Below, in pieces: positions 2,085-35,767 of a stretch of 64,000 nucleotides of DNA (its first letter is position 1; the number at the start of each line of letters is the position of its first letter). Source of the stretch: an uncultured Anaerolineae bacterium. GTDB taxonomy: Bacteria > Chloroflexota > Anaerolineae > JAADDB01. Under the pieces are notes generated by a model, which saw nothing but the letters and a program-made list of their open reading frames with translations, had not been told where the DNA came from and searched no databases. The stretch is taken from assembly GCA_964487375.1 (NCBI GenBank), contig CAZAQA010000008.1:61402-125401 (forward strand), given 5' to 3'. Position numbers and translations under genes: made by a program.

Positions 2085-2286
2085 TTATCGCTTTCGCCCA
2101 ACGAATGTCAACCTCAATGCCATCTAGTGGATCCTTTAGAGGAAATGCACCCAACATTCGCGCTTGTTGATAGAGCCCTTCAACGATACGAACATTGGCC
2201 TTGTAGTTAGGACGTTGTCGCCGCATAAGGTCCGCTTCAAACTTTTCCAATATGTTCTGCTTCTGGCGAAGTTCTTGAATTCCCAT
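2065..2286 (-). CDS. Small hypothetical protein coupled to the NTase gene
   Basis: 73 aa from the internal ATG (MGIQELRQ...) with a GGAAGGAG RBS; overlaps the NTase start by 20 nt. The longer ORF-track start at 2322 has no RBS. Confidence 0.4.
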   Translation of the reverse strand: MGIQELRQKQNILEKFEADLMRRQRPNYKANVRIVEGLYQQARMLGAFPLKDPLDGIEVDIRWAKAINVHSTH

Positions 2287-2345
2287 CCTCTTTCTCCTTC
2301 CACACAACACACATTTTAGCACGCATGTTCATATCACACAACTGG

Positions 2346-3533
2346 TCACGTAGCCACCTGAAGGCAAATTGTTTCCACGTGTTGGGCTGTCTGTTCAATG
2401 CGGAATATGCTCTGGACGCGTTGGTACCCGGCCCACCCCATTCGATGCATCGCTGTCACATTCCCCAGCAATTGTTCTATGGCCTTGGCCAATGCGTGCT
2501 CGTCACAGGACGGCACAAGCCGTCCTGTCTCCCCGTCCACCACGATCTCAGGCAGGGCTCCGTGGGCAAACGCGACGACGGGCCGGGCCATGGCCATGGC
2601 TTCCACCACCACCAATCCGAAGGGCTCCGGGTCTCCTGCGTGCACGAACACATCCATAGCAGCCAGTGCCGGGCGTACATCGTCCAGGTGACCGGTGAAA
2701 ACCACCTGCTCGGCCAGTTCCAACTCCCGGGTCAGCATCTGCAGCCGTTGGGGATAATCGTCCTTGACCTGGAATGGCGTCCCCCCAACGACCACACCCC
2801 ACACATCCGGCCGTTGGCGGCGCACACGGGCCAGGGCGCGCAGGAAGCGATCGTGCCCTTTCCAGGGACGCAGGCGTCCTACTGTGCCCACCAGGGGCAC
2901 ATCCCGTGGAATGCCGTACTGGTCGCGAAAGAGGGTACCGTCCATACTGGGGTCGTACTTCTCCACCTCGATACCGTTGTAGACGACGCTCACCCGGCCG
3001 GGACAGGGGAGGTGGCGGGCCGTGGCTTGGGAGTTGGCAATCACCCGGGCAGCCGCATGGCAAAGGAGCCGCTTCCCCACGTGGTCGGGCCACAAATGGC
3101 GCGGCCTGGATTCGGACAGCCAGAAATCGCGCATGTGCCAGATGAAAGGGCGTCTGGCCAGGCGGGCCGCGAGGGCCGCGTAGAGGCTGGCGCGCACGGT
3201 ATTGCCGTAGATGACCTGAACATTCATCTCACGAGCCTGATAAGCGAGAGCTCGCGCGCCTCGCATCATATCCAGGGGGGAACGAGGGGAACGGCGCAGA
3301 CGGGGTAAAGGGAGGGGATGAACGGATATTCCCAGGGCTCGGGCACGCTGGGCCAGCGCGCCTTCAGGGCAGGTGAGGTGAGGCTGGACGCGTGTCCGGT
3401 CCAAATGTTTGAGCAAAAGGAGCAAACTATGTTCCGCGCCACCCAGCGCGGTGGCGTGATCGAGGAAGAGGGCCACCCTCGACACGGGCACGGACGTGTT
3501 CTGCTCGGCATCTTGGGACATGGGCGCTCTCAT
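2346..3533 (-). CDS. Glycosyltransferase family 4 (GT4/GT1 fold)
   Basis: GGAEHSLLLL N-terminal motif and C-terminal EPFGLVVVEAMAMARPVVA (EX7E-type) motif. Start set at the internal ATG 3533 (alternative 3521); the ORF-track start is 3617. Confidence 0.75.
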   Translation of the reverse strand: MRAPMSQDAEQNTSVPVSRVALFLDHATALGGAEHSLLLLLKHLDRTRVQPHLTCPEGALAQRARALGISVHPLPLPRLRRSPRSPLDMMRGARALAYQAREMNVQVIYGNTVRASLYAALAARLARRPFIWHMRDFWLSESRPRHLWPDHVGKRLLCHAAARVIANSQATARHLPCPGRVSVVYNGIEVEKYDPSMDGTLFRDQYGIPRDVPLVGTVGRLRPWKGHDRFLRALARVRRQRPDVWGVVVGGTPFQVKDDYPQRLQMLTRELELAEQVVFTGHLDDVRPALAAMDVFVHAGDPEPFGLVVVEAMAMARPVVAFAHGALPEIVVDGETGRLVPSCDEHALAKAIEQLLGNVTAMHRMGWAGYQRVQSIFRIEQTAQHVETICLQVAT

Positions 3534-4159
3534 CGGGTATTTCTCACCGATCACAGCCAGGCAAGTGCATGCAGCCTCATCATATGCCGTGACGTAGCGG
3601 GCGTGAGGCATGCCCAATACCGTCCGGCATCTCGTTTCATGGATGATACGCCTAACGTGTGGCTCAGCGGCAGCGGCGGCGACTGCACAACCACCATGGC
3701 CAACTTGCTACATCCTTTGCAAATCGCGCCCGCTTTCGCGAGCGGCGAAGCCGCTGTCCGCTGCAATCCCCCAATACGGCGGGCCGTCTTGTTGTTCGGA
3801 TGAAACAGGCTGGTACCGCCCGTGGTCTATTGAGGTCAGGCCGGACACGCAAGCCGAACATTCGCATTGGTGGCTCAGGCCCCGTCTAGAAATCTGGGCC
3901 GCGGCTCGGACGATTCCTTCATTGGTGGCACGGGTTGGCGAGACCCGGTGACCCCGCTCAGTAACGTGTCGATTTCGAGTGAGCCGTATGGTTCATCCCA
4001 TGGTTGACGTGGTGACGACATTCGCCCTTCTTCTTCCCTGTTCGCAAGGGGTTCCTGCTTACAGGTGTTTCCTGCTGCCCTGAATCCGGTTTCCGGCCTC
4101 AAAACGACCTCTTTCACTGTTTCTCAGTACGCGGGGTTAGGTGGGCAATCTTGCCCCTC

Positions 4160-4552
4160 TCACTCTAACCCTACCATGTGCTTTTCAATCCATGCCTCCA
4201 ACGCCTTCCGCCCTATTCGCCCAGCCGCCACCCCTCTCAAAACCTCCTCCTGCTCTGCCACATCCGCTTCTATCTCATATCCGTTCAGCATCAAAAACGT
4301 TTCCATTGCGGCGTGGGCTATCCGCTTATTTCCATCCACAAATGGGTGATTCTTTACTAAACTGTAAACCAACGTCCCTGCCTTCGCTGCCAAACTCGGA
4401 TAGAGATACTCGCCTCCAAACGTCATCCGAGGTTGCGCAAGCGCCGACTGCAATGCTCCCAAGTCACGGATCCCCTCCTCGCCGCCCCCTATTTTCATCA
4501 CGCCGTGATAAAGCACCAACACCTCACTCAAAGTGAGGTAGCGAATCACCAT
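4160..4552 (-). CDS. doc: Doc (death-on-curing) Fic-family toxin
   Basis: 130 aa carrying HPFVDGNKR, the Fic/Doc HxFx(D/N)GNKR motif; sits 5 nt downstream of a small antitoxin-like ORF. Confidence 0.85.
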   Translation of the reverse strand: MVIRYLTLSEVLVLYHGVMKIGGGEEGIRDLGALQSALAQPRMTFGGEYLYPSLAAKAGTLVYSLVKNHPFVDGNKRIAHAAMETFLMLNGYEIEADVAEQEEVLRGVAAGRIGRKALEAWIEKHMVGLE

Positions 4553-4557
4553 CCGCT

Positions 4558-4764
4558 TCAGACCCCCACCGCCAACCGACGATAAAGTTCACTATTCTTC
4601 TGCAGGACATACTCCATTGCCTGCAGAAACTCCTCATCAGGGCGACTAAGTAAATCTTCCACGATGGCCGCTAGAAGCGTTTCCGGGGGAACCCGCAACC
4701 GCTGGGCTTTTTCTTGAAGTTTTGCAAACTGCTCTTCGGTTAGGGGAATAGTGACCACGGTCAT
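4558..4764 (-). CDS. phd: Phd/RHH-like antitoxin of the Doc module
   Basis: 68 aa starting MTVVTIPLTEEQFAKLQEKAQRLRV (ribbon-helix-helix style N-terminus); GGAGCAGG RBS upstream of the ATG at 4764; the ORF-track N-terminal extension to 4902 is unsupported. Confidence 0.65.
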   Translation of the reverse strand: MTVVTIPLTEEQFAKLQEKAQRLRVPPETLLAAIVEDLLSRPDEEFLQAMEYVLQKNSELYRRLAVGV

Positions 4765-4891
4765 TGTCCTGCTCCGATCCCAACGAAAGGAATGCGCCTG
4801 GTTTCTCCTCTTTTTATTGTACACCACTTTGCCTGTGAGTGTTTCTACCCAACTATATGATTGACCTGTAAAATTGAAGCTAAAGACCATG

Positions 4892-4954
4892 TTATCCGAC
4901 AAATCTGTCGGATAAAGCCCCAGAGAAGGGGTTATCCAACAGATTTGCAGGATA
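4892..4954. promoter_or_regulatory. Putative Phd/Doc operator repeats
   Basis: Perfect palindrome TTATCCGACAAATCTGTCGGATAA (4892-4915) and a second related site TTATCCAACAGATTTGCAGGATA (4932-4954), ~130-190 nt upstream of phd on the minus strand. Confidence 0.4.
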
Positions 4955-5163
4955 TGGGCGTGTGTAGCAACAAAACGGCCGAATAGTGTTCCCTATCGGG
5001 GATATGACTTGCACTCCTACCAAAGCCCAACTGCGCCCGCTGCTCACCCAAAGTATATCATATCAACAAGCATACCCCAAATATTGCAGACATCACTCCA
5101 GGCATTGGCAGTACGCCCGGCCAATAACCGGCAAATGGGGTTGAACAGCCGCACCCACCGCGG

Positions 5164-6219
5164 TCATTCACCGCTGAGGGCCTCCTCCATCCGCTCGGCG
5201 GCATGCTCCCACGTCATGTGCGTTTCCACCCAACGACGGCCCGCCTGCCCCATGGCTTCACGCAGATGGGCATCCCTGAGCAAGTCGAGCAAGACGGCGG
5301 CCAGGGCAGCCGGGTCATCCGGAGGGACCAAACGTCCCGTTTCTCCGGGTACGAGAGCTTCTTCGGCTCCGCTCCCCCACGTCGTGACCACTGGCAGGCC
5401 ACTGGCCGCGGCCTCCAGAAAGACAATACCGAAGCCTTCCACACTGGCCCCACCCTGTTCTTCCCGAACGGGCATCACGAAGATATGGGCATTCTGATAA
5501 ACCCCCGGCAGGCCAGACTCAGGAACCCGCCCCACAAATTCCACCATCCCCTGAACATCAAGCTGGTGGCTTAATTTCATCAAGCGCTCCAGGTATGGGC
5601 CGGAACCGACGACCCGGTAGCGCAAATCCGGGAAGGACGTCCGCAGGAGGGGCAGCGCACGCAGGACGGTATCCACGCCCTTGCGGGGCACCAGGCGTCC
5701 CACCGTGAGCAAGACGGGGGGAAAGGAGGGGCGAGCGACGGGCGGCGTAAAGCGGGCCGGATCCGTGCCCGGATAAATGACGATGGGCAAAGGCAAGCCC
5801 AGACTTTGTAGATGACGGGCATTGGCTCGGGTGATGGTGATGAGCGGATGGGCGTGTGCCAAAAGCCGATTGAACAGGGGGCGATGCCATCGACGCTGTG
5901 CGGCGCGATAGTCGTTGCCGTAAGCCACGGCCGCGTAACGATTCGGAGCGACAAGCATCGCCAGGAGCAACAGCCGTGGGTGGGCGTGTCCCACGAGCAC
6001 CCGGTCGGGGTGGGAAGCGACCAGCGCACGCAACCAGAGGTCCCAGCGTGAGCGAGGAACGACCACGCGACGATAGGGTTCAGGGCCGGGGGCGGGCACC
6101 GGCGTGATAACCGTCACCGGATGATGCCGGGCGATCCGGCGCAGGATCTCGTACAAGTAGCGCTGCACGCCCCCCACGCCGGGAGGAAAGTCGAAGGTGA
6201 GACAGGTCAGGCGGCTCAT
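5164..6219 (-). CDS. Glycosyltransferase family 4
   Basis: Start MSRLTCLTFDFPPGVGGVQRY; C-terminal EGFGIVFLEAAASGLPVV motif. The ATG at 6219 overlaps the upstream gene's stop (ATGA); the ORF-track 5' extension to 6426 is rejected. Confidence 0.8.
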   Translation of the reverse strand: MSRLTCLTFDFPPGVGGVQRYLYEILRRIARHHPVTVITPVPAPGPEPYRRVVVPRSRWDLWLRALVASHPDRVLVGHAHPRLLLLAMLVAPNRYAAVAYGNDYRAAQRRWHRPLFNRLLAHAHPLITITRANARHLQSLGLPLPIVIYPGTDPARFTPPVARPSFPPVLLTVGRLVPRKGVDTVLRALPLLRTSFPDLRYRVVGSGPYLERLMKLSHQLDVQGMVEFVGRVPESGLPGVYQNAHIFVMPVREEQGGASVEGFGIVFLEAAASGLPVVTTWGSGAEEALVPGETGRLVPPDDPAALAAVLLDLLRDAHLREAMGQAGRRWVETHMTWEHAAERMEEALSGE

Positions 6220-7316
6220 GAGGTGTCCCTTTTGAAACGCTTTGGCTTCACTTTGGAGGAGGCAATCTCCCGAAAGAGGGCCTCGTAAGCATCCACCACT
6301 CGCTCCAGTGAGAAATCGCGGACCCGGCGGAGGCCCTGCTGTGCCCAATAGTGCCGTTCCTCCTCGCGGGACAGCAGTCGCACCAGCGTTTGACCTATCT
6401 CCTTCAGCGGGACAAGGAGGCCCCATCGGCCCTCATCCAGAACTTCGCGGGCACCATCGTTGGGTGTCGCTACGACCGGCGTACCGCTTGCCATGGCCTC
6501 GATGTAAGGAACGCCGAAGCCTTCATAGCTACTGGGCAGACAAAACACCCACGCCTGTCGGTACAAATCGGCCAGTTGCCGGGTTGAAGGATGCAAGAAC
6601 GAACGAATGTGGGGGACGGTTTCCACTTTCTCCCCAGAGACGAGCCACAGTTCCGCGTCCGGCCGCGCGGGGAGGACTTCCTGTCGGAAGATGCGGATCA
6701 ATTCATTGCCCCGTTTACGGCCACGCAGTGTGCCCACAAACAAGATAGAAGGATGCTCATTCTTGGTGTGACCGGGATGAAACAGTGACAGATCCACCCC
6801 GTTGGGAATAACTCGATCGATAAAGGGCAGATAGCGTCGGGTATTGGCACTGACGGCCACCGCGATCGTGGCCTTTGCCGCCTCCCACACTTCACGAGGG
6901 ACGAAGGTAAGGTACCACAGGCGTTTCTTCCAGGTCGGCGCGTGAATAGCTTCCCCCAGAGCCGCGCCGTGAAACGTGCGTACGAGGGGAATGCCGGGAC
7001 GCACGACCAGGGCGTCATCCCCGTGAGCGTGCAAAACGTCAAACGAACTAAAATCTTGTCGGGCGAATTTGCGAACAACGGTCCAGTTCCAGCGCCAACG
7101 GGACCAGGGCGTCTGGGGGTATGGGAGGACCACCTGCTTCACTTCGTAGCGAGCACCTGGTGGACGAGGATCGACGCTGAAGATGGTCACTCGGTGGCCT
7201 CGGTCCACCAGGGCGTTGGCGAGACGATGGGCCACGTAAGCCACTCCTCCTCGCTTCTCCTGACTCTGGGGCAGGTGCAGGGAAAGCACGGCAATCCGCA
7301 GTGAGGCGAGGCTCAT
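6216..7316 (-). CDS. Glycosyltransferase family 4
   Basis: MSLASLRIAVLSLHLP... with YEGFGVPYIEAMASGTPVV motif; start at 7316 overlaps the stop of the upstream GT2 gene (ATGA). Confidence 0.8.
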   Translation of the reverse strand: MSLASLRIAVLSLHLPQSQEKRGGVAYVAHRLANALVDRGHRVTIFSVDPRPPGARYEVKQVVLPYPQTPWSRWRWNWTVVRKFARQDFSSFDVLHAHGDDALVVRPGIPLVRTFHGAALGEAIHAPTWKKRLWYLTFVPREVWEAAKATIAVAVSANTRRYLPFIDRVIPNGVDLSLFHPGHTKNEHPSILFVGTLRGRKRGNELIRIFRQEVLPARPDAELWLVSGEKVETVPHIRSFLHPSTRQLADLYRQAWVFCLPSSYEGFGVPYIEAMASGTPVVATPNDGAREVLDEGRWGLLVPLKEIGQTLVRLLSREEERHYWAQQGLRRVRDFSLERVVDAYEALFREIASSKVKPKRFKRDTS

Positions 7317-8215
7317 GTTCCTGGCCTCCTTCCCGCCGCCCACCATCCATCCCACAAGCCAAGCAGAGAGGGGAGAACTAAATGCAACTGCCTTTGCCCC
7401 AGCCCACGCTTGACCAGAATCCAGCCAAGCTCCCGTTTTAGAAACCAGGGTAAATATCGATGTGAGATATTCTTGCGGAAGAAATAGGCGTTGTTGTAAT
7501 GACTTTCATAGTAGAAGCGCCCGGCATCCTCCTCCAGACTCGTCCGCACCCCACCGCGATTGTGCATCAGGTGGACGACCGCGGCCTCCGGGTCATACAT
7601 GATGATGTAGCCACGCTCACGGATGCGAAAGGAGAAATCCGTTTCCTCCCAGTTCGCCTTGCCAATATACCCTTCATCGAACAGACCCACGTCCAGGGCC
7701 AGGGTCCTGGGCACCGACATGTTACATCCAATCAAGCTGTCGGTCTCCCCGCGGGGCACCGGATGTTCCCAGTAGGAGTACATCCGCCCATCAGGGCGAA
7801 TGACGCAAACCTTGGGCTTCGGGGGCAAAGCCTTTTTCTCCGGTCGAATCCCACCGGTGACCGCGCCCACTTTCGGGTCTCTATAATTCCTGAGGTGCAA
7901 TTCAACCAGGTTGGGAGGGGGAATGATATCATCATCACAGTAAAGCAAATAGGCGCCGCGCGCCAGGCGCGCGCCCACGTTGCGAGCATGCGGCAGGCCG
8001 GGCGTGCTCAGGCGATGGTAGTGAAAATGAGGATGGCGGCCCAACGCTTGCAGGCACGCCTCCGTTGCCGGCCGGTGATGCGGCGTCTGGTCGATAACGA
8101 TCAGCTCGAGGTTCGAGTAGGTTAGTGAGAGCAGGTGATGAAGTGTCTGGCACAAAATCGCTTCCCGCTTGTAGGTGGGAACAATGATGGAGACGAGAGG
8201 CTTCTCAGCGGCCAT
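7313..8215 (-). CDS. Glycosyltransferase family 2
   Basis: VSIIVPTYKREAILCQTL N-terminus and LLYCDDDIIP (DxD) motif, as in GT-A fold GT2 enzymes. Confidence 0.8.
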   Translation of the reverse strand: MAAEKPLVSIIVPTYKREAILCQTLHHLLSLTYSNLELIVIDQTPHHRPATEACLQALGRHPHFHYHRLSTPGLPHARNVGARLARGAYLLYCDDDIIPPPNLVELHLRNYRDPKVGAVTGGIRPEKKALPPKPKVCVIRPDGRMYSYWEHPVPRGETDSLIGCNMSVPRTLALDVGLFDEGYIGKANWEETDFSFRIRERGYIIMYDPEAAVVHLMHNRGGVRTSLEEDAGRFYYESHYNNAYFFRKNISHRYLPWFLKRELGWILVKRGLGQRQLHLVLPSLLGLWDGWWAAGRRPGT

Positions 8216-9122
8216 CGCGCCCCCCTTCCTGAAGCCAGTTCGCTGACGAATGACGAACCCTGACCCCGGCCAAGAATCCTGCGGCCATCCCCAGCAAGCT
8301 GGGACCTAACAGACGAACCTTCCGCTGCTGCCAGACGACGCGATAGGCCAGGTGAACCAGGTGACGCCGCAAAAAAGGCAACAATCCCCACACTCGGCAG
8401 TGCTTAGCGAAGAAGTAAGCGTTGTTGTGAAACCAACCATAGACGTACCTGGACTCGTCCTCCTGATCACTGCGACTTCCTCCGCTGGGCCAGGCCAAAT
8501 GTTCGACGCGGGCCGCGGGGTCATAGAGCAGCCGATACCCCAGATCACGAACTCGCCAGGACGCGTCCGTCTCCTCACGATGGGCCCGTCCGATGAACCC
8601 TTCATCAAAGCCCCCTACCTCAACAAGAGCACGCCGTCGGAAGGACATATTACAGCCGACGACGCTGTCCACGGAAATCGCGGTGTCCGGCACCGGACGT
8701 ACTGCAACTTCACAATCGGATTGCATGTACAGCGGCCCCTTAGCACGCTTCAGATCAAGATGATCGGGGCCGGTGACGCCCCCCACACGGGGATCACCGT
8801 AGTGCCGAGCGTGTGCGACCAGCAAATCCTTCCCGGGAATGACATCATCGTCGCAAAAAAGCACCACGTCTCCTCGCGTTTCCAAAATCCCCCGGTTCCT
8901 GGCATAGCACATCCCCGTCCGGTCCAAATGGAGGACACGCGCCGGTGGGGGTAATGCCGCCAGGAAAGCGCGCGTCTCCGGCTCATGAAAGGGACTTTGA
9001 TCCACAATCAACAACTCCCACTCGGGATAGGCTTGCTGCAGAAGTCCTTTGATGGTGTCTCGCAGCACCTTCTCACGCCGATAGGTAACCACAATGACAG
9101 AAAGCGAGGGTAACGCTGTCAT
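8205..9122 (-). CDS. Glycosyltransferase family 2
   Basis: LSVIVVTYRREKVLRDTI and VVLFCDDDVIP motifs; paralog of the preceding GT2; 11-nt overlap with the upstream gene. Confidence 0.8.
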   Translation of the reverse strand: MTALPSLSVIVVTYRREKVLRDTIKGLLQQAYPEWELLIVDQSPFHEPETRAFLAALPPPARVLHLDRTGMCYARNRGILETRGDVVLFCDDDVIPGKDLLVAHARHYGDPRVGGVTGPDHLDLKRAKGPLYMQSDCEVAVRPVPDTAISVDSVVGCNMSFRRRALVEVGGFDEGFIGRAHREETDASWRVRDLGYRLLYDPAARVEHLAWPSGGSRSDQEDESRYVYGWFHNNAYFFAKHCRVWGLLPFLRRHLVHLAYRVVWQQRKVRLLGPSLLGMAAGFLAGVRVRHSSANWLQEGGRDGR

Positions 9123-26757: not shown

Positions 26758-29487
26758 ATGACCATTCCGACGTTTATTTCCAGAATGCGCGTGTGGGTAG
26801 GTAGTTTCATCCTCCTGCTCTTGCTCCTGGCAGCCGGGGGAGGCCTCTATGGAGCGCCTCTGTCCGCACAACCAGGAGGGGCATGGCCACATGGGCCACA
26901 GCCCGGCCACAGCCCGATCAGGACCGTTCCTTTTGTCCCGGGCCGCGTTTTGGTGAAACTCCGCTCATCGCCGGAAGGTCTCCGTTTCTTGGCCCGCCAA
27001 CCGGGTGTGTTGGCCGCGGCGTCCCTCCCTGCCCTGCACCTGGAAGTCCTCACGGTGCCGGTAGGCCACGAGCAGGAGATGGCCGAGCGCCTGCAAAGGG
27101 ACTCACGAGTCCTCTACGCGGAGCCGGATTACATTTACCAGGCCCTATCGACTCGGCCCAACGATCCTTTCTACACCCAGTACCAGTGGCAACTTCCTCA
27201 CATCGGTCTGGAAACCGCCTGGGACACCACACAAGGCAAGGACAGCGTTATTGTCGCCATCGTCGATTCCGGCGTCGATTTGAGCCACCCGGACCTGGCG
27301 AGCCACGTGATCCAGGGGCGCAACGTCATCGCCGGCAACAACACCCCTGAGGATGATCAGGGACACGGAACGCACGTGGCCGGCATTGTCGGCGCCATGA
27401 CGAACAACCACCTCGGCATCGCGGGGATCGCCTGGCACGTGAAACTCATGCCCGTAAAGGTCCTGGACAGCAGCGGCAGCGGGACCTCCACCCAGGTGGC
27501 CACGGGAGTCCGCTGGGCCGTGGACCACGGGGCCCGGGTGATCAACTTGAGTTTGGGCGGAAAGTCATCGTCCGCCACACTGCGCGACGCTATCGACTAC
27601 GCGTACGCCCATGACGTCCTGGTGGTGGCCGCGGCGGGGAACGCCTACCAAGATGGCAATCCTCCCATCTACCCCGCGGCCTATCCTCATGTCCTCGCTG
27701 TCGCGGCCACGGATGACCAGGACCGGCATGCCAGCTATTCCAGCAGCGGGCCTTTTGTAGATGTCGCTGCTCCCGGGGGCGACCCCAGCAGCAATGCCGA
27801 CCAGAATGATAGACATTGGATCCTCAGCACATACTGGCGCGGATCCAATTACGCTTACGCCTTCCTCGCGGGCACAAGTCAGGCCGCTCCCCACGTCTCC
27901 GGTCTGGCTGCGCTCCTCCTCTCCCTGAACCCGCGCCTCTCCGTGGACGATCTGACTCAGATCATCACCGGCACCGCGGTGGATGTGGAGTCCCCCGGCC
28001 GGGACGATCTGACGGGCTATGGGCGTATTAACGTGGCCGCGGCCGTTGCTGCAGTCCTGAGCACGCCCACGCCGACCAAGACGGCCACGGCGTCGCCCAC
28101 CCCGACCCTCACACCTACCCCCACGGCGACGGAGACGCCCAGCCCAACGCCAACGTTGACACCGACGCCCACGGCCTCTGCAACGCCTACGTGGACGTCG
28201 ACGCCAACGTTCACGGCGTCGCCGACTCCTACGCTAACGCCCTCTCCGACCGTCGGGAGCACGGTGACTCCCACCGCAACGCCGACGCCAACGCCATCGT
28301 CGACCCCCGCCCTGTACCCCTTGCACGACACACGTGTCAATAATGATTCGGGCAATGCTGCCCAGCGCCATCCCCATGTGCTTGTGGACGAGACGGGCGC
28401 GGTGTGGGTCGTCTGGCGCGACAACCGGAGCACACCGGCGGGCATCTATGTCGGAGTGCTCCACCCACATCAGGCGGGCTGGACGTCTAACGAGAGGGTG
28501 TCCCCCGTGTACGACTCCGACCTGATGGCCGTACGCCCGGTTCTTACCCGCCAGGAGAGAGAGACAGCTATCGTGTGGCAGGATACCCGCGGCCAGGATG
28601 AGAACGTCTACGTCTCCCTCTCCCTGGCGAATCCTTCTGTCTGGACGGCGCTTCAGCAGGTCAATGACGATTCCACGCCGCCTGCACAACAGTTCTCTCC
28701 CGACGCGGTCATGGATGCTGCGGGACGGCTCTACGTGGTTTGGACGGACACGCGTCACGGGAACCGCGATCTGTATTGGCGCACGCGCACATCGGGACAG
28801 GGAGCGCACTGGCAGCCGGCCGCGCCGGTGCCGCCCGCCAGCGGACCGGGTGTGCAGATGCAACCGGCGCTTGCTGTAGACGCGGCCGGCAAGGTGTACC
28901 TGGCCTGGGCCAACGAAACACCGGGGCGCATCGAGGTGGCCGTCTTCGACCCGAACACCCGGGTCTGGCAGACGCTGCCCGGGGTCGGCGGTGGATTCAC
29001 CCCCGGGGCCCAGCCGATTCTGCCCGACATCGTCGTGGAGAAAGGCCGTATCCACGTCATCTGGCAAGAAGTGCGCCGGCCGGAACAAGGGTTCGACATC
29101 TACCACAGCGTCTTCGAGAACGGAGCCTGGACCCCGGCCCAACGGGTGAACACGGACATCGGTGGGGCCATCCAGAGCGCTCCCCGTATCGCCAGAGCAC
29201 CGGACGGGGTGGTCGCGGTGTGGGAGGATTGGCGCTTGGGGCGACCTGACATCTACATGAGCTGGTGGACGCCGGAGAAGGGCTGGCTGCCAGAACGCCG
29301 GGTCGCGGACGAGTCCGTTTTTGCCCTTCGCTCTGAGCCGGATGTCGCGACCGACGCCCAGGGCGGAACGCACATTGTTTGGGTCGATGCCCGGAGCCTC
29401 GCTTCTGGTCCAGACATCTACTACCGTTACATTCCGCTCAGCTACCGTTACGCCACGTATGTGCCCGTAATGTGGGTACAGAGGTGA
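26758..29487 (+). CDS. Secreted S8 subtilisin-like serine peptidase fused to a Thr/Pro-rich linker and a C-terminal 7-repeat beta-propeller-like domain
   Basis: Signal peptide; catalytic triad motifs VAIVDSGVD, HGTHVAG, GTSQAAPHVSG; ~85-aa TPTPT linker; seven ~50-aa repeats each with V(V/I)WxDxR...G.(D)IY. Confidence 0.85.
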   Translation: MTIPTFISRMRVWVGSFILLLLLLAAGGGLYGAPLSAQPGGAWPHGPQPGHSPIRTVPFVPGRVLVKLRSSPEGLRFLARQPGVLAAASLPALHLEVLTVPVGHEQEMAERLQRDSRVLYAEPDYIYQALSTRPNDPFYTQYQWQLPHIGLETAWDTTQGKDSVIVAIVDSGVDLSHPDLASHVIQGRNVIAGNNTPEDDQGHGTHVAGIVGAMTNNHLGIAGIAWHVKLMPVKVLDSSGSGTSTQVATGVRWAVDHGARVINLSLGGKSSSATLRDAIDYAYAHDVLVVAAAGNAYQDGNPPIYPAAYPHVLAVAATDDQDRHASYSSSGPFVDVAAPGGDPSSNADQNDRHWILSTYWRGSNYAYAFLAGTSQAAPHVSGLAALLLSLNPRLSVDDLTQIITGTAVDVESPGRDDLTGYGRINVAAAVAAVLSTPTPTKTATASPTPTLTPTPTATETPSPTPTLTPTPTASATPTWTSTPTFTASPTPTLTPSPTVGSTVTPTATPTPTPSSTPALYPLHDTRVNNDSGNAAQRHPHVLVDETGAVWVVWRDNRSTPAGIYVGVLHPHQAGWTSNERVSPVYDSDLMAVRPVLTRQERETAIVWQDTRGQDENVYVSLSLANPSVWTALQQVNDDSTPPAQQFSPDAVMDAAGRLYVVWTDTRHGNRDLYWRTRTSGQGAHWQPAAPVPPASGPGVQMQPALAVDAAGKVYLAWANETPGRIEVAVFDPNTRVWQTLPGVGGGFTPGAQPILPDIVVEKGRIHVIWQEVRRPEQGFDIYHSVFENGAWTPAQRVNTDIGGAIQSAPRIARAPDGVVAVWEDWRLGRPDIYMSWWTPEKGWLPERRVADESVFALRSEPDVATDAQGGTHIVWVDARSLASGPDIYYRYIPLSYRYATYVPVMWVQR

Positions 29488-29542
29488 GCCCCTGGACCGC
29501 TTTCTCGCCTGACCGGTCCAGGACTTCGGCGCTCAGAGAGTC

Positions 29543-30031
29543 TCACCAGCCGAACAATTTCAGCCGGATCCGTGTCCAGAGGGAAGATTCCTTTCCAGGA
29601 CGCTGCAAGGAGAAGGACCATCCTTCCTCTCCTGGACCCTCCCGAATGTAAGCACGGATTCGGGCAACCTCCTCCGCATGTCCTCTGATGAGATCCAACC
29701 GCGGACGGGGAAACCAGTACGGGCAGCCGACGCACCAGGAGAGATCTCGGGGCAGGCGTTCCGGGGGAGCCAGCCGGTAAAAGTAGCGACAGGCAAAGTA
29801 AGCTGGCGGGTGAGGCGGATCGTCGATGAAACGAATGGGGCGCAGATACAAGCAGGCGCGCGGGTGACGAAGAGCCTCTGGGATGGGGCAGGCCCCACAC
29901 ACGCGCTCCAGGGCGGATGTCTCCTCCCCAACCCGGGCCAGAAAGGTGTCCCCGGCCACTGTACACACGAACTCTTCTCCCTGACCGTCTTTTGCTGGTC
30001 GACGCTGGCGGAACTCACATTCCGGTATCAT
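29543..30031 (-). CDS. Small Cys-rich hypothetical protein (third gene of an uncharacterised operon)
   Basis: 162 aa from ATG 30031 (MIPECEFRQ...), which overlaps the stop of the upstream gene (ATGA); 8 Cys including CGAC and CVGC pairs. An alternative frame (29560-30018) is also open, so the call is tentative. Confidence 0.4.
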   Translation of the reverse strand: MIPECEFRQRRPAKDGQGEEFVCTVAGDTFLARVGEETSALERVCGACPIPEALRHPRACLYLRPIRFIDDPPHPPAYFACRYFYRLAPPERLPRDLSWCVGCPYWFPRPRLDLIRGHAEEVARIRAYIREGPGEEGWSFSLQRPGKESSLWTRIRLKLFGW

Positions 30032-30822
30032 GGCTCCTCTCGCCTTTCTCCCGCGTAGAACGCCACCGCACGCACCCAGGAACGGGCTTCCTCCGACAAG
30101 TGAGGTTCCTCTCGGTGTTGCCATCCATGCTTACGGATGTACTGACTCAGGTGATCTCGCTGATCCAGAATTCGTCGACGCGCGTCCTGGGCCAGGAGCA
30201 AGGCCACGTTCGCATCCCGCTCCTCGGCCAGGAGAAGCGCACGGCGTAAATGAGGCAGACAGAGGCCATCAGAACTCTCGTACAAGGAGCGGAAAGAGGC
30301 CTCGGGATATCGTTTGATCAGCCAGATGAGGTGCGTGGTCTCCTGCTCCTGCCCGATCGCACAGGCCCGGCAGACGCCACGCGGGGCCAATCCGAACGGG
30401 AGATCCCCGGCTCGGCTGCCGGCGAAGAGTCGGAGCCAGACGTTGCGCAGGCGCCACCACCAACGAGGGGCTTGCCGCGCCTTGTGGCGCTGCATCTCGA
30501 TATAGGCGTCGATCCCGTCCAGGGTGTGCCGGAGCAAGTCCTCGTACAGGATGCCCACGCCTAAACCGTCTTCCCAGATTTGGGCCTCCAACCGCTGCAC
30601 GTACCAGGCGTGGGTGGGGCAAAACCCCAGCGCGGGGACGATGTGTCGCCGCGTGGCTCCGTCGTTGACATGTTCTCGCAACAACGAGAGCAAATAGCGG
30701 TGTTCGGCCTGATAGCGTAACCGACAGAGGGGACAACCCGGTTCCCGGAAAGCTACCTTCAGATCCAATGTGATGAGATCGCCATGTCCTGGCATCATCT
30801 GCTTCCTAAACGGCCTGGGCAA
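30028..30822 (-). CDS. Hypothetical protein with CxxC...CxxH...CxxC...CxxH motifs (putative Zn/redox site)
   Basis: 264 aa; GCPLCR, GFCPTHAW, GVCRACAIG, GLCLPHL; 17-nt overlap with the upstream gene and ATGA overlap with the downstream gene. Confidence 0.5.
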   Translation of the reverse strand: MPRPFRKQMMPGHGDLITLDLKVAFREPGCPLCRLRYQAEHRYLLSLLREHVNDGATRRHIVPALGFCPTHAWYVQRLEAQIWEDGLGVGILYEDLLRHTLDGIDAYIEMQRHKARQAPRWWWRLRNVWLRLFAGSRAGDLPFGLAPRGVCRACAIGQEQETTHLIWLIKRYPEASFRSLYESSDGLCLPHLRRALLLAEERDANVALLLAQDARRRILDQRDHLSQYIRKHGWQHREEPHLSEEARSWVRAVAFYAGERREEP

Positions 30823-32263
30823 TCATGCATCGCCGCGTTCGCTCGGCCAGGCTATAAAAGGCACGAATGGCCCCATGGGGAAAGCTGAAGCGCACGCCCT
30901 TCCCGCGCGTGTGGGGAAGGCGTACTTCGAGATAGGCGTTGAGGATGGAGTCCTGGAACACCAGGGTTCCCACATCTTTCAAAGCCCATTTTCTCGGCGA
31001 GGAGACGGACGCGGCCTGAGGATCCGGGATCTGCCACAGGGTCGACGGGGTGACGAGGAGCAGATGGGCCACAGCGGAGGGATGGGCCCAGGCCGGGAGC
31101 AAGGCCCACGTCTGCACCGGCTCGGAGAGATGGTCCTCAAGCCACTGCGAAAACCGGTCCTGCAGCGCAGTCACCTGCGCCGGATCGTTCGTGGCCGGGT
31201 CGACCAAAGGGGGCAAGGGGTCGAGGGGAGGCGGCACGTGGGCGCGGCGCAGGATGTAGCCGTTGCCGGCCCCGGGGAGGAACGATCTTAAGTGGACAAG
31301 AAGCTCCTCCAGGGCGGCATGTTGGGCTGCAGGGAACTCCCACACCACTTCCTCATCCCCCCGGGCCGTCCGCCAACGAGTGCGCAGGAGGAGCACATCG
31401 CCACTCAGCTCGTCCACACGGACATCGTTCAATCGCTCCAGGACCCCCATGTGAGACGTAAAACCGTAACGCACCCCGGCGCTGTCGGGTGGGACGAGTT
31501 CGGTCAGGTGCAGCAAACGCTGGTCCGTAAGAATGAGCACGCCTTCGTAAATGATCGGCCGTCGCCAGAAGGTCCCTTGCAGATGGCTGCGCAAGCGGGG
31601 ACGCCAAAGTGCGATGAGGATGCGCTCGTCCGGGGCTAAATGAGAGGCCACGTACCCTTGGAAACGCCGCGGAAGCCGGAAGAAGGTGTATTCGGCCTCC
31701 GTGTAATGTTCCACCCGGGCAAAGGCCAGTCGGCCCCGGTAGGGTGCGGGAGGACGCCAGAGGGGAGACGCTTCGTCTGTTGCCCGGGCATTCAGGGCCA
31801 GGCGATAGGCGCGCTGCGCCTCTTGAATCTGCGGCCACACCTGATCTCGCTCCAGCCAGGCATGCACATCCACGGCCGCGAAGACCTGCAACCCGGCCAT
31901 CACCTGCTGCCGCTGTTCCGCATCCAGGTCGGGGATGTCGGACAAGGAGGCACAGGTGGGATCGGCATCGGCAACCGCCACAAGTACCGGAGGCCGACCT
32001 TCCATGCCGTTGTGGATCCCGCCGATGATGCGGGCGAACAGCCGAGTTCCCGGCGGATGAGAAGCGGTGCCCAGGAGGAGAACGGGCAAAGGGGTATTCT
32101 CGACCGTCAGGGTGCGCAGTACAATGGCGTGGTCGACCGAAACCCGCCGATCGGGCATATGAATTTCTTGCAGGTGAAGACGTTCGTCCTCGGGATCAGG
32201 ACGGTACACTCCAACCGGTCGTCCCGGGCGCACGATCTCTATCTGCACGATACCCCGACTCAT
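30806..32263 (-). CDS. Hypothetical protein with a degenerate family-I inorganic-pyrophosphatase-like N-terminal domain
   Basis: 485 aa from ATG 32263. Residues ~5-130 (IVQIEIV...ENTPLPVLLLGTASHPPGTRLFARIIGGIHNGMEGRPPVLVAVADADP) parallel the PPase core (VVIEIP...DGDPLDVLV...[29 protein letters not shown]), but most metal-binding Asp residues are replaced. The remainder is unassigned. Confidence 0.5.
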   Translation of the reverse strand: MSRGIVQIEIVRPGRPVGVYRPDPEDERLHLQEIHMPDRRVSVDHAIVLRTLTVENTPLPVLLLGTASHPPGTRLFARIIGGIHNGMEGRPPVLVAVADADPTCASLSDIPDLDAEQRQQVMAGLQVFAAVDVHAWLERDQVWPQIQEAQRAYRLALNARATDEASPLWRPPAPYRGRLAFARVEHYTEAEYTFFRLPRRFQGYVASHLAPDERILIALWRPRLRSHLQGTFWRRPIIYEGVLILTDQRLLHLTELVPPDSAGVRYGFTSHMGVLERLNDVRVDELSGDVLLLRTRWRTARGDEEVVWEFPAAQHAALEELLVHLRSFLPGAGNGYILRRAHVPPPLDPLPPLVDPATNDPAQVTALQDRFSQWLEDHLSEPVQTWALLPAWAHPSAVAHLLLVTPSTLWQIPDPQAASVSSPRKWALKDVGTLVFQDSILNAYLEVRLPHTRGKGVRFSFPHGAIRAFYSLAERTRRCMIAQAV

Positions 32264-32863
32264 GGAATCTTCCTCGCGAACGTTTCTGCCTTGAAGCGCG
32301 TGTCTGCCCCCAAATCCGGCAAACAAAAAGCCTCTACCGAGCCAGGTCGGTAGAGGCCATCAGTCCCCACGGACACTTCCGGCGAGCCTCATCGCCATCG
32401 CAGGGAGTATACCATCAATTTGCCCCACCGCGCAACCCCATCAAGCGCGCAGGCAACCAGCCCCACGTCGCCAGTAACAGGTCCTGTCCTGGCATGAGGG
32501 CCGCCTTGCGGTGGCTCTGGCAGAATCATGCCTCCCCCGGGAAGTGCCTGAGCGTGACCATCGAACGAGAATTCCCGGAACGCGACGAGGCCGCCTCCGT
32601 GTTCCCGGAAACGGCCTCGTGCTCCCCACGCACCCACTGCCTGTAGCTCTATTATATACTCGATCCTGTTGCTTTTTTCTGTAAGCTTCCTTACATTACA
32701 GACTTACTGAATCGGGTTTTGGTCCGAAACGTCGCCAGCAGATCCCGGGGCCCGCTCCGAAGATCGAACCTGTGGATCATGATGCGGGGGTTCGCCCAAA
32801 CGGCCGGAGCAAGGTATACTTGAGCAAGAATCACCATCCGAAATGTCACCGGAGGAGAGCGCC

Positions 32864-35767
32864 ATGTCCGAGGAACTCATTCGTCAGGTGGCTGATGAAC
32901 TGACTCGCCGCACCACCGCGGAAGTCCGTTTCGACGATCTCACCCGTGTCCTTTACAGCACGGATGCCAGCATCTATCAGATAGAGCCTCTTGGAGTTGT
33001 CATTCCTCGCACGGAAGAGGATTTGATTGCAGCCGTGGAGATCGCGACGCAACAACGCATTCCTATTCTGCCCCGAGGCGGAGGCAGCAGCCTGGCCGGT
33101 CAAGCTGTTGGCGAAGCCCTGATCATTGATCTGAGCAAATATCTTAACCGCGTCCTCGACATCGACCCGGAGCGACGTCAGGTGACCGTACAGCCAGGTC
33201 TCACCCTCAACTTTCTCAATCGGGCTGTGGCCCCCTACGGGCTCATGTACGGTCCCGACCCCGCATCCGGGGAGCGAGCCACCCTGGGCGGCATTGTGGG
33301 CAATAACAGCACCGGCGCTCATTCCATCCTCTACGGCATGACTGTCAACCACGTTGTCGCCCTCGATGTCGTCCTCTCCGACGGCAGCCTGGCCCGGTTC
33401 GATTCGGTCGATGGGAAGGCGCTCAACACCCGCGCCCGAGGAAACAGCCTGGAGGCCCGTCTGTACCGCGAGGTTCCGGCGTTGCTCGACGACGCAGCCG
33501 AAGCCATCCGAGAGCGATTTCCTAAACACTGGCGTCGGGCCAGTGGCTATAACCTGGACTTCCTGCTCAAAGGATTAGAAGAAGGCCATTTCAACCTGGC
33601 TCAGGCTATTGTCGGCTCGGAAGGAACCCTGGCCGTGGTCCGGTCCATCACTTTGGGACTGGTAGACCGTCCTCGGCACAAGGGGTTATGTGTGGTCCAC
33701 TGCGACGATCTGATTCAGGCTATGCACGTCAACCTGGCCGCTCTGGAGTGCTGCCAACCTTCCGCGGTGGAGCTGCTCGACCGGAAAGTCATCGAGCTGG
33801 CACGGACTGTTCCTGAATATGCCCGGCAGCTCTCTTTTGTCCGAGGGAACCCCGAAGCGCTGATCATCGTGGAGTTCTATGGAGAAAGCGAAGAAGAAGT
33901 CAGGAGCCGAATCGATCAATTAGAAGCTCACCTGCGCCGGCGCAAATTGGCCGATACCTTCGTGCGCGCCCTGAGCCCCGAACAGCAAGCTCAGGTGTGG
34001 AATGTGCGCAAGGTCGGGTTAGGGCTACTCATGAGCACCCGAGGGGATTATAAGCCCATCGCATTCATCGAGGATGCGTCGGTGCCGCCGCAAGCGTTGC
34101 CCGATTATGTCACGGACATTCTCGACCTGATGCAGCGGACGAACACCCGGGTGGCCATGTACGCCCATGCCAGTGCGGGCTGCCTTCACATCCGCCCCTT
34201 GATCAACCTGAAAGACGTCCGCGACGTGGACAAGATGGCCGCCATCTCCCGCACCGTCGCCGATCTGATGGCGAAGTACGGGGGGGCCATGAGCGGCGAA
34301 CACGGCGACGGCTTGGCCCGCTCTCAGTTCATCGAACGCATTTTCGGTCCCGAGCTCTACCAGGCCTTCCGTCGTCTCAAAGGGACGTTTGACCCCCAGA
34401 ACCTCATGAACCCGGGCAAGATCGTAGACGCCCCGGCCATGACGGAACATTTGCGCTACGGGGCCGATTACTTCGTACGTCTGATCCCGACCACGTATGC
34501 CTGGGACGATTTTCAGGGATTCGATCGGGCGGTGGAACAGTGCAACGGCGCCGGCGTCTGCCGCAAACTCGACGCCGGGACCATGTGTCCAACGTTCATG
34601 GCCACCCGGGATGAAAAGGAGAGCACGCGCGGTCGAGCCAACACCCTACGAGCCTGGATGAGCGGCAAGCCTCTCAGTCCTTCGGACGAAGAAGTGTACG
34701 GCGTGCTGGACCTTTGCCTGGGATGCAAGGGGTGCAAATCTGAATGTCCCTCCGCCGTGGACATGAATAAGATCAAGACGGAGTGGATGGCCTGGTACTA
34801 CGATACTCACGGTCTGCCCCTGCGTAACTGGATCTTTGGCCACATCCACCAACTAAACGCCCTTGCTGCTCCGGTTGCGCCCCTGGCCAACCGCATTTTG
34901 AACGCCCGGGCCTTCAAGTGGGCAGCAGCTCGAGTGCTGAAAATCCACCCCCGGCGCACTCTGCCTGATCTGGCCGACGAAACGTTCCCGGCCTGGTGGC
35001 ATCGGCGACCGAAGAGAGTTCGCCAGGCCTCTCGAGGGCAGGTGGTTCTCTTCCCTGACACGTTCGTCACCTACAACGATCCGCACATTGGCCGGGCTGC
35101 CGTTCGCCTGCTGGAAACGGCCGGGTATGAGGTCATTGTGGCGGAAAAGCGAGTGTGTTGCGGGCGTCCCCTCCTTTCCAAAGGACTGCTGAAGGAAGCC
35201 CAGAAGAACGCCGCCTACAACGTGAATCTCCTGCTCCCCTATGCTCGCCAGGGTCTTCCCATCATCGGCCTGGAACCTTCCTGCATCCTGACCATGAGAG
35301 ACGAGTATCCTGATTTGGTAGCGGGCCAAGACGCCAAGACGGTGGCAGGACAATGCCTCACCATTGACGAATTCCTGGCCGACCTGCTCCGTCGGGAACC
35401 GGATGCCTTACACTTCGACGCACCCGAGCGTCCGGTCTACGTCCATGGCCACTGCCATCAGAAAGCCCTGGTCGGAACGGGGCCGACTCTGGAGGTGCTG
35501 AGAGCGGCCGGGTTCCGTGTGGAAGAAATTCCCTCGGGATGTTGTGGCATGGCCGGGAGCTTCGGCTATGAGCTGGAGCATTTCGACCTCAGCGTGGCCA
35601 TCGCGGAGGACCGACTGCTACCCACGCTACGCCAGGCCCCAGACGACGCCATCATCGTCGCTGATGGCACCTCTTGCCGCCATCAGATTGCCGACCTGAG
35701 CGAACGGACGGGTGTGCATCTGGTGGAGGTGCTGGCCGACGCGCTCCGGTCTCCTGCAGCTTCCTGA
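32864..35767 (+). CDS. FAD-binding oxidase fused to 4Fe-4S and CCG (GlcF-like) domains (YdiJ-like 2-hydroxyacid dehydrogenase)
   Basis: GlcD-like FAD-binding N-terminus (ILPRGGGSSLAGQAV), CxxCxxC motifs (CLGCKGCKSECP), C-terminal CCG repeats; start at ATG 32864 with a GGAGGAG RBS. Confidence 0.8.
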   Translation: MSEELIRQVADELTRRTTAEVRFDDLTRVLYSTDASIYQIEPLGVVIPRTEEDLIAAVEIATQQRIPILPRGGGSSLAGQAVGEALIIDLSKYLNRVLDIDPERRQVTVQPGLTLNFLNRAVAPYGLMYGPDPASGERATLGGIVGNNSTGAHSILYGMTVNHVVALDVVLSDGSLARFDSVDGKALNTRARGNSLEARLYREVPALLDDAAEAIRERFPKHWRRASGYNLDFLLKGLEEGHFNLAQAIVGSEGTLAVVRSITLGLVDRPRHKGLCVVHCDDLIQAMHVNLAALECCQPSAVELLDRKVIELARTVPEYARQLSFVRGNPEALIIVEFYGESEEEVRSRIDQLEAHLRRRKLADTFVRALSPEQQAQVWNVRKVGLGLLMSTRGDYKPIAFIEDASVPPQALPDYVTDILDLMQRTNTRVAMYAHASAGCLHIRPLINLKDVRDVDKMAAISRTVADLMAKYGGAMSGEHGDGLARSQFIERIFGPELYQAFRRLKGTFDPQNLMNPGKIVDAPAMTEHLRYGADYFVRLIPTTYAWDDFQGFDRAVEQCNGAGVCRKLDAGTMCPTFMATRDEKESTRGRANTLRAWMSGKPLSPSDEEVYGVLDLCLGCKGCKSECPSAVDMNKIKTEWMAWYYDTHGLPLRNWIFGHIHQLNALAAPVAPLANRILNARAFKWAAARVLKIHPRRTLPDLADETFPAWWHRRPKRVRQASRGQVVLFPDTFVTYNDPHIGRAAVRLLETAGYEVIVAEKRVCCGRPLLSKGLLKEAQKNAAYNVNLLLPYARQGLPIIGLEPSCILTMRDEYPDLVAGQDAKTVAGQCLTIDEFLADLLRREPDALHFDAPERPVYVHGHCHQKALVGTGPTLEVLRAAGFRVEEIPSGCCGMAGSFGYELEHFDLSVAIAEDRLLPTLRQAPDDAIIVADGTSCRHQIADLSERTGVHLVEVLADALRSPAAS

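Follow-up and report, generated by a model that had tools for sequence, protein, structure and literature searches.

Fluoride-responsive operons and the locus under study

Few guides to the cellular response to fluoride are better than fluoride riboswitches, and beyond the exporters CrcB/Fluc and CLC-F most of the regulon is poorly understood. Fluoride inhibits inorganic pyrophosphatase (PPase) and enolase at ~100 µM (PMC11139923), and the same source places PPase genes among the most frequent fluoride-riboswitch-associated genes. In Enterobacter cloacae FRM, a riboswitch-activated ppaC-uspA-eno-gpmA-crcB operon gives resistance (PMC5533749). The present analysis concerns a three-gene operon on the minus strand of a 64,000-nucleotide (nt) stretch, referred to as the window, of contig CAZAQA010000008.1 from an uncultured Anaerolineae bacterium of the phylum Chloroflexota (assembly GCA_964487375.1). 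The operon is preceded by a fluoride riboswitch, and the regulatory and comparative picture drawn from its sequence and that of its relatives makes it quite probable that the operon is induced by fluoride and encodes members of three uncharacterised families of the fluoride regulon. Its genes are the following open reading frames (ORFs).

30806..32263, minus strand: ORF1, 485 amino acids (aa), from ATG 32263 to the stop at 30806
30028..30795, minus strand: ORF2 (DUF6062), 255 aa, with alternative starts at ATG 30798 and TTG 30822
29543..30031, minus strand: ORF3, a small protein of 162 aa with 8 Cys

The locus shares with described fluoride-riboswitch operons (E. cloacae FRM, PMC5533749; the ‘super-regulon’, PMC7266159 and PMC11139923) the aptamer class, its helices P1 and P2, the pseudoknot, and the terminator platform, and, as in those operons, a gene of PPase ancestry comes first. 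The operons of its relatives also have in common with them CrcB, MutS-like ATPases, DUF190-CBS, enolase, a phosphoglycerate-mutase-family protein, a Na+/H+ antiporter, and Usp. Unlike the known fluoride operons, the PPase-derived gene of the window appears from its residues to be catalytically dead and is fused to two PH-like domains, and the operon includes neither an exporter nor a known fluoride-target enzyme. The regulatory element is an ordinary member of its riboswitch class, and the cargo consists of new protein families. The searchable literature yielded no description of a pseudo-PPase/PH fusion, of DUF6062, or of an 8-Cys family tied to fluoride, and no paper on DUF6062 at all; its link to fluoride riboswitches and its two invariant Cys3His sets, both read from sequence comparison, are new observations.

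The riboswitch leader

The 515 nt upstream of the genes had been taken for a non-coding region, which actually contains a fluoride riboswitch and a terminator. The leader and its immediate upstream sequence are made up of three elements.

32344..32405, minus strand: fluoride riboswitch aptamer (crcB motif, RF01734), from an Rfam covariance match
32318..32358, minus strand: intrinsic terminator (expression platform), from a terminator scan and fold
32406..32435, minus strand: candidate promoter, with a -35 element TTGCGC (32435-32430), an 18-nt spacer, and an extended -10 element TGG-TATACT (32414-32406)

The aptamer is the sole Rfam match in the 64 kb. It aligns at 32405-32344 with positions 1-64 of the RF01734 model at 34.4 bits against a gathering score of 34 (E-value of 6e-7 for the region and 9e-6 for the whole window), and reaches 67 bits with the covariance model built in this analysis. 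The conserved core (GAUG...CUGAUG...CUAC) is complete. P1 is formed by 32396-32393 paired with 32384-32381 and P2 by 32374-32371 paired with 32366-32363, while the pseudoknot joins GAGGC (32390-32386) in the P1 loop to GCCUC (32357-32353) in the 3′ tail. Relative to the Rfam consensus, GAGGC:GCCUC is a double change that keeps the pairing.

The terminator consists of a 12-bp stem (GGCCUCUACCGA / UCGGUAGAGGCU) with a 6-nt loop, followed by the U-run UUUUUGUUUGC. It is the sole terminator-like site in 29300-32900 (32358-32318), and its hairpin dominates the minimum-free-energy fold of the leader (-45.8 kcal/mol, z = -3.75). By their coordinates, the aptamer and the terminator share 15 nt (32358-32344), and the 5′ arm of the terminator includes the pseudoknot strand GCCUC. 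Because this strand is part of that arm, the two predicted structures are mutually exclusive, as in fluoride switches that turn transcription ON. The promoter was read by eye and is tentative; its placement directly 5′ of the aptamer would suit a short leader, and a consensus scan with stricter rules reported no promoter.

Riboswitch linkage across the ORF1 family

ORF1 has about 55 close homologues, each of ~475-515 aa. A genome scan located homologues at 28 loci, all in Chloroflexota, two of them in the cultured hosts Anaerolinea thermolimosa IMO-1 and Leptolinea tardivitalis YMTK-2 (retrieved loci carry L numbers below). At the Rfam gathering score, 16 of the 28 loci have a fluoride aptamer ahead of the ORF1 homologue and in its orientation. 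The Rfam matches of these 16 loci, which are related sequences and were taken with their flanks, were used to build a covariance model, and this model detects an aptamer in every one of the 26 loci that have upstream DNA, including A. thermolimosa and L. tardivitalis; L015 and L018, cut by contig ends, were left out of the 26. Scores of 48-69 bits are obtained for nine loci outside the training set of the model. The aptamer heads a longer operon in L023, L025, and L026.

The linkage extends to remote members. An exhaustive profile search returned 303 cluster representatives of the ORF1 family, 98 of them at E ≤ 1e-30, and, among the matches listed, the full-length architecture is kept in most non-fragment hits. 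The distant subfamily (~25-35% identical) is represented by 60 loci in a metagenome scan. Of the 41 whose upstream sequence could be used, 38 have a same-strand aptamer match within 1.8 kb upstream, and the cores of the distant-subfamily aptamers are canonical. When 82 distinct related aptamers are compared, 95.5% of cells form pairs, and compensatory changes occur at 9 of the 13 pairs. The pseudoknot also covaries even though it is not encoded in the model, as exemplified by pair 23-102 (AU 30, GC 29, GU 23), while slid controls pair at ≤47%. Synteny comparison identifies the riboswitch together with the ORF1 family, not the three-gene order of the window, as the unit conserved among relatives.

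Several of the retrieved loci contain further aptamers. Variants in which an insertion of 31-35 nt replaces the short P2 (L029:183-272, 5329-5418, and 6701-6786; L005:5308-5395) score 23-41 bits with the model built here, while Rfam either does not report them or places them below threshold. They precede a P-type ATPase, an MFS gene, and an enolase operon, and the P-type ATPase is followed by a dynamin-like GTPase with faint DUF6062 matches. Rfam may under-call fluoride riboswitches in Chloroflexota. Many distant-subfamily loci carry 2-4 aptamers on both strands and form dense multi-riboswitch ‘fluoride islands’; the 9.7-kb L055 has five aptamer matches (1501-1568, 2648-2714, 3045-3112, 8066-8135, and 8266-8332). 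Within another fluoride island lies a HEARO RNA (L085:1263-1534, minus strand; RF02033, 103.6 bits), an HNH endonuclease-associated RNA of an IS605/OMEGA-type element.

ORF1: a pyrophosphatase fold with PH-like domains

Three parts can be distinguished in ORF1.

32263-31784, minus strand: PPase-fold pseudoenzyme domain (aa 1-160), assigned as such from fold and residue loss
31705-31274, minus strand: helix and PH-like domain 1 (aa 187-330), the most conserved part
31183-30809, minus strand: helix and PH-like domain 2 (aa 361-485)

The original prediction saw in the N-terminus of ORF1 a family I PPase core with substituted metal-binding aspartates, followed by ‘~350 aa of unassigned sequence’. 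The first part is borne out at several levels. Pfam PF00719 matches residues 8-151 at 24.3 bits against a cutoff of 23.5 and is matched by 24 of 30 family members at E ≤ 0.1; solved PPases give weak phmmer matches; and the fold of the N-terminus is the OB-like barrel of PPases. In the AlphaFold2 (AF2) model, which has a predicted local distance difference test (pLDDT) score of 84, this β-barrel spans aa 1-160. The second part did not stand. After a disordered linker (aa 164-185), the model contains two helix-capped β-sandwich domains (aa 215-326 and 385-482), with the β-sandwich and C-terminal helix cap that define PH-like domains.

The motifs ENTPLP and HNGMEGR do occupy the DGDPxD and DEAGED positions, and the losses go beyond them. 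Fourteen catalytic or metal-binding residues were scored (E20, K29, E31, R43, Y51, Y55, D65, D67, D70, D97, D102, K104, Y141, and K142) against the E. coli PPase sequence, which was checked by its known residue numbering. Thirteen are replaced in ORF1, mostly by hydrophobic residues, and E20 alone is kept. D65/D67/D70 correspond to E/T/P in ORF1 and to F/E/A in the family, and the signature D-x-D-P-x-D is absent; D97/D102/K104 correspond to M/P/V or G/P/V, depending on which of two alignments is used, and vary across the family. An independent HMMER alignment to 1qez leads to the same conclusion. Divergent family members have scattered single aspartates, never the full set or a complete triad. 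With 19.2 and 14.6 bits, the matches to the NCBIfam equivalogs NF002317 and NF002578 fall far short of the cutoffs of 246 and 200. ORF1 is accordingly best described as a putative PPase-fold pseudoenzyme that would not hydrolyze pyrophosphate (PPi).

Unlike family I PPases (PF00719; E. coli PPA, PDB 1ipw, 6mt1, and 4xel), ORF1 has a 325-aa C-terminal extension. Its PH-like domains can be compared with bacterial bPH_3 (PF14470; PDB 3b77 and 3hsa) and with eukaryotic GRAM, GLUE, and TFIIH-p62 PH domains. The ORF1 of the window gives no bPH_3 match at E ≤ 1, while 22 of 30 aligned family members do match, the best at E 1.3e-5. In contrast to known PH-like proteins, where no retrieved match fuses such domains to a PPase fold, ORF1 combines the two. 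Identity of the window ORF1 to the family is 30% in the PPase-like domain and 53% in the central helix and PH-like domain 1, which also hold most family-invariant motifs (AEYTF..LP.RFQ.Y, L.PDERIL, LILTDQRL, and PPDS...RYGF). Because this central region is conserved over the PPase-like domain, the functional centre of ORF1 is probably the middle of the protein.

ORF2 and ORF3: cysteine-rich companions

None of the three proteins belongs to a characterised family, as had been stated at the outset, though ORF2 falls into an annotated, unstudied Pfam family: it matches DUF6062 (PF19538) at 42.4 bits against a cutoff of 27, and the domain is present in all 120 ORF2 homologues among the matches listed. 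The anticipated CxxC and CxxH motifs are there as CPLC, CPTH, CRAC, and CLPH. The residues fall into two Cys3His sets (C21/C24/C59/H62 and C142/C145/C179/H182), all eight invariant in 35 sequences, and each set would plausibly serve as a Zn or redox site. The structural model is all-α with a pLDDT of 94, and no solved structural or sequence relative of ORF2 was found.

ORF3 is indeed the 8-Cys protein in the reading frame proposed earlier, with conserved homologues. The frame is favored by a tblastn E of 4e-37 and by a high-low-high pattern of codon-position GC content, as in ORF1 and ORF2. The alternative frames 29560-30018 and 29448-29966 were rejected, with tblastn E >0.3 and the wrong codon-position GC pattern. 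ORF3 is marked by the motifs CxxCPxP, ACLxL, FxCRxFYxL, and CxxCxxWFPRP. Its homologues are P0057 (47%), P0058 (45%), and proteins from six metagenome loci, and all 8 Cys are kept in every sequence that covers them (seven full-length and one partial, from L076). Searches of Pfam, NCBIfam, PDB sequences, PHROG, and PADLOC gave no match for ORF3. The conserved residues of ORF2 and ORF3 make metal binding probable for both, with structural zinc as the simplest case.

PADLOC and PHROGs returned no meaningful match, so a defence-system or phage origin is not indicated.

Gene neighbourhoods in relatives

The usual arrangement in close relatives has the ORF1 homologue as the first gene behind the aptamer, with two MutS_V-type ATPases, CrcB, and DUF190-CBS after it. 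Further occasional partners are a HEAT/zinc-ribbon protein, an MFS transporter, and a family-less protein of 129-153 aa. DUF6062 occurs alongside the ORF1 homologue in L018, L023, L025, L026, and L034, and in ~16 distant-subfamily loci it lies directly between the aptamer and the ORF1 homologue. DUF6062 operons led by a riboswitch are found in L034, L035, and L036; those of L035 (Thermoflexus) and L036 begin with DUF6062, lack ORF1, and nevertheless carry aptamers with Rfam scores of 34.7 and 34.1 bits, respectively. Genes for a Na+/H+ exchanger and a Usp-CBS protein are likewise part of the L036 operon. A distant DUF6062 gene in L037 has no aptamer nearby.

Homologues of ORF3 are rare. P0057 (L029) directly follows a DUF6062 gene in an operon with the order MFS - 129 aa - enolase - His_Phos_1 - DUF6062 - ORF3, which is convergent with a second array, aptamer - ORF1 homologue - MutS - MutS - CrcB - DUF190-CBS. 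The six metagenome homologues lie 1.5-2.5 kb upstream of distant ORF1 homologues, and an aptamer match is found just upstream of the ORF3 homologue in four of the six loci (L051, L053, L058, and L079), the remaining two (L059 and L076) being cut at the contig edge. Each of the three families is thus linked to fluoride aptamers in its own right. They are also found together, with their order rearranged, in lineages that are independent of each other (the window, L029, and L051/L053), which supports a functional link and not a chance neighbourhood. No canonical PPase gene was found in the window or in any locus retrieved.

Other families recur in these neighbourhoods. The family-less 129-153 aa protein (cluster c7, without a Pfam match) is present in 50 of the 60 distant-subfamily loci and in several close ones (L001:6772-7203, L029:6880-7269, L018:7832-8248, L026:4025-4474, and most of L040-L099); in L029 it is the first gene of the enolase operon, and it looks like another uncharacterised fluoride-island family. 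A protein of 160-180 aa that combines HEAT_2 repeats with a zinc ribbon at its N-terminus is found repeatedly beside ORF1 homologues and DUF6062 genes (L005:1821-2330, L006:2179-2691, L012:6398-6940, L023:3753-4241, L026:4471-4953, L034:9590-10081, and L035:8187-8669), and a riboswitch operon in L036 opens with an MFS transporter to which a HEAT domain is fused. Two more small-protein families follow DUF6062: one of ~190 aa (L034:7788-8357 and L018:1274-1861) and a predicted coiled-coil family of 136-195 aa (L035:7734-8165, L036:11985-12572, and L025:6475-6885). Kinship of ORF3 with the small proteins after DUF6062 (189 aa in L034, 143 aa in L035, 195 aa in L036, and 195 aa in L018) was considered and rejected, as no similarity was detected.

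A fluoride-aptamer-like element at L034:5850-5936 (minus strand) scores 30.8 bits in Rfam, below the gathering score, and 30.4 bits with the model built here. It precedes a MoxR AAA+ - DUF58 - DUF4129 operon (4812-5819, 3521-4822, and 1998-3509) that is divergent from the DUF6062 operon. A MoxR gene also follows the ORF3 homologue P0058 (L032:704-1675). These arrangements suggest that MoxR chaperone systems may be connected with the fluoride regulon.

Operon layout and flanking genes

The three ORFs were found on the minus strand at the expected positions, and the description of a co-directional, densely packed unit holds. The ATGA overlap of the ORF2 stop and the ORF3 start can be read in the sequence. 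The claimed 17-nt overlap of ORF1 and ORF2, on the other hand, needs the TTG 30822 start and is probably an artefact of choosing the longest ORF. A Shine-Dalgarno-like AGGAAG lies directly 5′ of ATG 30798/30795, and public gene calls give identical ORF2 proteins of 255/256 aa. On these two grounds TTG 30822 is disfavored, and the junction is most likely a gap of 7-10 nt, tight and non-overlapping. TTG 32326 was likewise rejected as the start of ORF1, since it would overlap the U-run of the terminator and both homologues and gene callers use ATG. The terminator scan of 29300-32900 found no terminator-like site within the unit itself (29543-32318), and the predicted genes are packed tightly enough for joint production.

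The flanks are as foreseen: a protease, here an S8 peptidase in convergent orientation, and a redox enzyme, a divergent FAD/Fe-S oxidoreductase. The S8 peptidase gene (26758-29487) has a Thr/Pro/Ser-rich linker (TPTPTKTATASPTPTLTPTPTA..., around 28100-28330) between its catalytic domain and a C-terminal repeat region, and this low-complexity stretch gives rise to long spurious antisense ORFs. Three short ORFs fall in the leader/promoter region upstream of the riboswitch: 32389-32637 (minus strand, 82 aa), 32441-32629 (minus strand, 62 aa), and 32494-32646 (plus strand, 50 aa), the last of which is called by a public pipeline. All three are without support and are probably spurious in DNA of 60% GC.

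Proposed mechanism and its alternatives

In the proposed mechanism, transcription would start just upstream of 32405 and, at low fluoride, stop at the leader terminator (32358-32318). Binding of fluoride to the aptamer (32405-32344) would allow the GAGGC:GCCUC pseudoknot to form and sequester the 5′ arm of the terminator, such that RNA polymerase would read through into ORF1-ORF2-ORF3; this is the ON logic expected in vivo. ORF1 would retain the fold of the classic target of fluoride as a binding or oligomerisation platform, without PPi hydrolysis, and its highly conserved middle part, the central helix with PH-like domain 1, would let it serve as an adaptor or regulator in fluoride stress, with ORF2 and ORF3 as probable metal-binding partners. 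Any specific mechanism for the trio of proteins is improbable when taken singly.

Several observations weigh against a fluoride-inducible three-family operon. The aptamer of the window exceeds the Rfam gathering score by 0.4 bits, many distant-subfamily aptamers fall under that score and are called with the model built here, and fluoride binding and induction at this leader are predictions from its sequence. The order ORF1-DUF6062-ORF3 is unique to this contig, and in most close relatives ORF1 occurs without DUF6062 or ORF3. A search of the 64-kb window found no crcB, MutS-like, DUF190, MFS, or HEAT partner gene; because crcB, MutS-like, and DUF190 genes are missing there, the presumed role in fluoride tolerance is an argument of guilt by association. 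Metal binding by ORF2 and ORF3 is suggested by their Cys/His patterns, and ORF1 could conceivably have gained a new activity through other residues, such as those of an invariant SHPxxT motif. Residues invariant across the ORF1 family include R15, Y20, D44, S68-H69-P70, T73, and D101.

One alternative, which is a specific version of the favored explanation, holds that ORF1 is a regulatory or decoy (prozyme-like) paralogue. Its PPase-fold domain would co-assemble with or bind the oligomer of the housekeeping family I PPase, or another fluoride-sensitive phosphoryl-transfer enzyme, and would tune or protect that enzyme in fluoride stress or tether it via the PH-like domains. Dead paralogues that regulate active relatives are a known pattern, and here the fold is kept without the chemistry in most hits among the matches listed of the 303 representatives, ORF1 is strictly coupled to a signal that reports inhibition of the parent enzyme, and PH-like domains are typical interaction modules. 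Nonetheless, no canonical PPase gene is near ORF1 in the window or any retrieved locus, and conservation in ORF1 peaks outside the PPase-like domain, so this version is possible and on the whole unlikely. More generally, a dead PPase paralogue might control the active enzyme or a related target, shield it, or determine where it is located, or it might just reuse an oligomerising scaffold.

An equally tentative idea is that the trio handles metal-fluoride chemistry, with DUF6062 and the 8-Cys protein binding or chaperoning metals disturbed by fluoride and ORF1 serving as a scaffold. The invariance of the Cys/His sets in ORF2 and ORF3 fits this idea, as do the island neighbours (a P-type ATPase, VIT1, DUF211, and the MoxR-DUF58 operon behind an aptamer-like element), the MoxR gene after one ORF3 homologue, and the over-representation of divalent-cation transporters in fluoride-exporter operons (PMC11139923). 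Against it, Cys3His/Cys4 sites are most often purely structural zinc, and DUF6062 has no structural relative to guide function.

It is very improbable that ORF1 is an active, fluoride-resistant replacement PPase that is induced to bypass the inhibited housekeeping enzyme. Such a role would fit a PPase fold that meets the Pfam cutoff, riboswitch control, and the precedent of riboswitch-linked PPase genes and fluoride-insensitive PPases (PMC11139923, PMC5533749). It is contradicted by the replacement of 13 of the 14 catalytic and metal-binding residues, with the Asp triad gone and several positions hydrophobic; by divergent members that also lack a complete triad; by NCBIfam equivalog scores far under their cutoffs; and by a PPase-like domain that is less conserved than the centre of ORF1.

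Finally, a fortuitous or decayed riboswitch match in front of an ordinary constitutive cluster unrelated to fluoride, for which the score barely over the gathering threshold and the lack of a fluoride exporter in the 64-kb window might speak, can practically be dismissed, given the recurrence of the aptamer at the equivalent position in all 26 testable close loci and in 38 of the 41 distant ones, the covariation of helices and pseudoknot, a terminator that exactly overlaps the pseudoknot strand, and the presence of all conserved core nucleotides.

Implications

On the reading of a fluoride-inducible operon, the whole ORF1 family (~300 clusters at 50% identity) would be a catalytically dead PPase derivative whose genes nearly always follow a fluoride aptamer and often open an operon that continues with MutS-like ATPases and CrcB. 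Some of the ‘pyrophosphatase’ genes counted in riboswitch surveys may thus be pseudoenzymes. It is conceivable, as a speculative extension, that the trio constitutes an unrecognised, Chloroflexota-wide, export-independent branch of fluoride defence. If so, a dead copy of the enzyme target of fluoride would have been recruited alongside two new zinc/cysteine proteins, and the dead PPase would act as a fluoride-stress sensor, a decoy, a regulator of phosphoryl-transfer enzymes, or a metal-fluoride binder. Three DUF-type families gain a testable physiological context, with two cultured hosts available for experiments, and the regulon is of relevance to the engineering of fluoride tolerance for organofluorine degradation.

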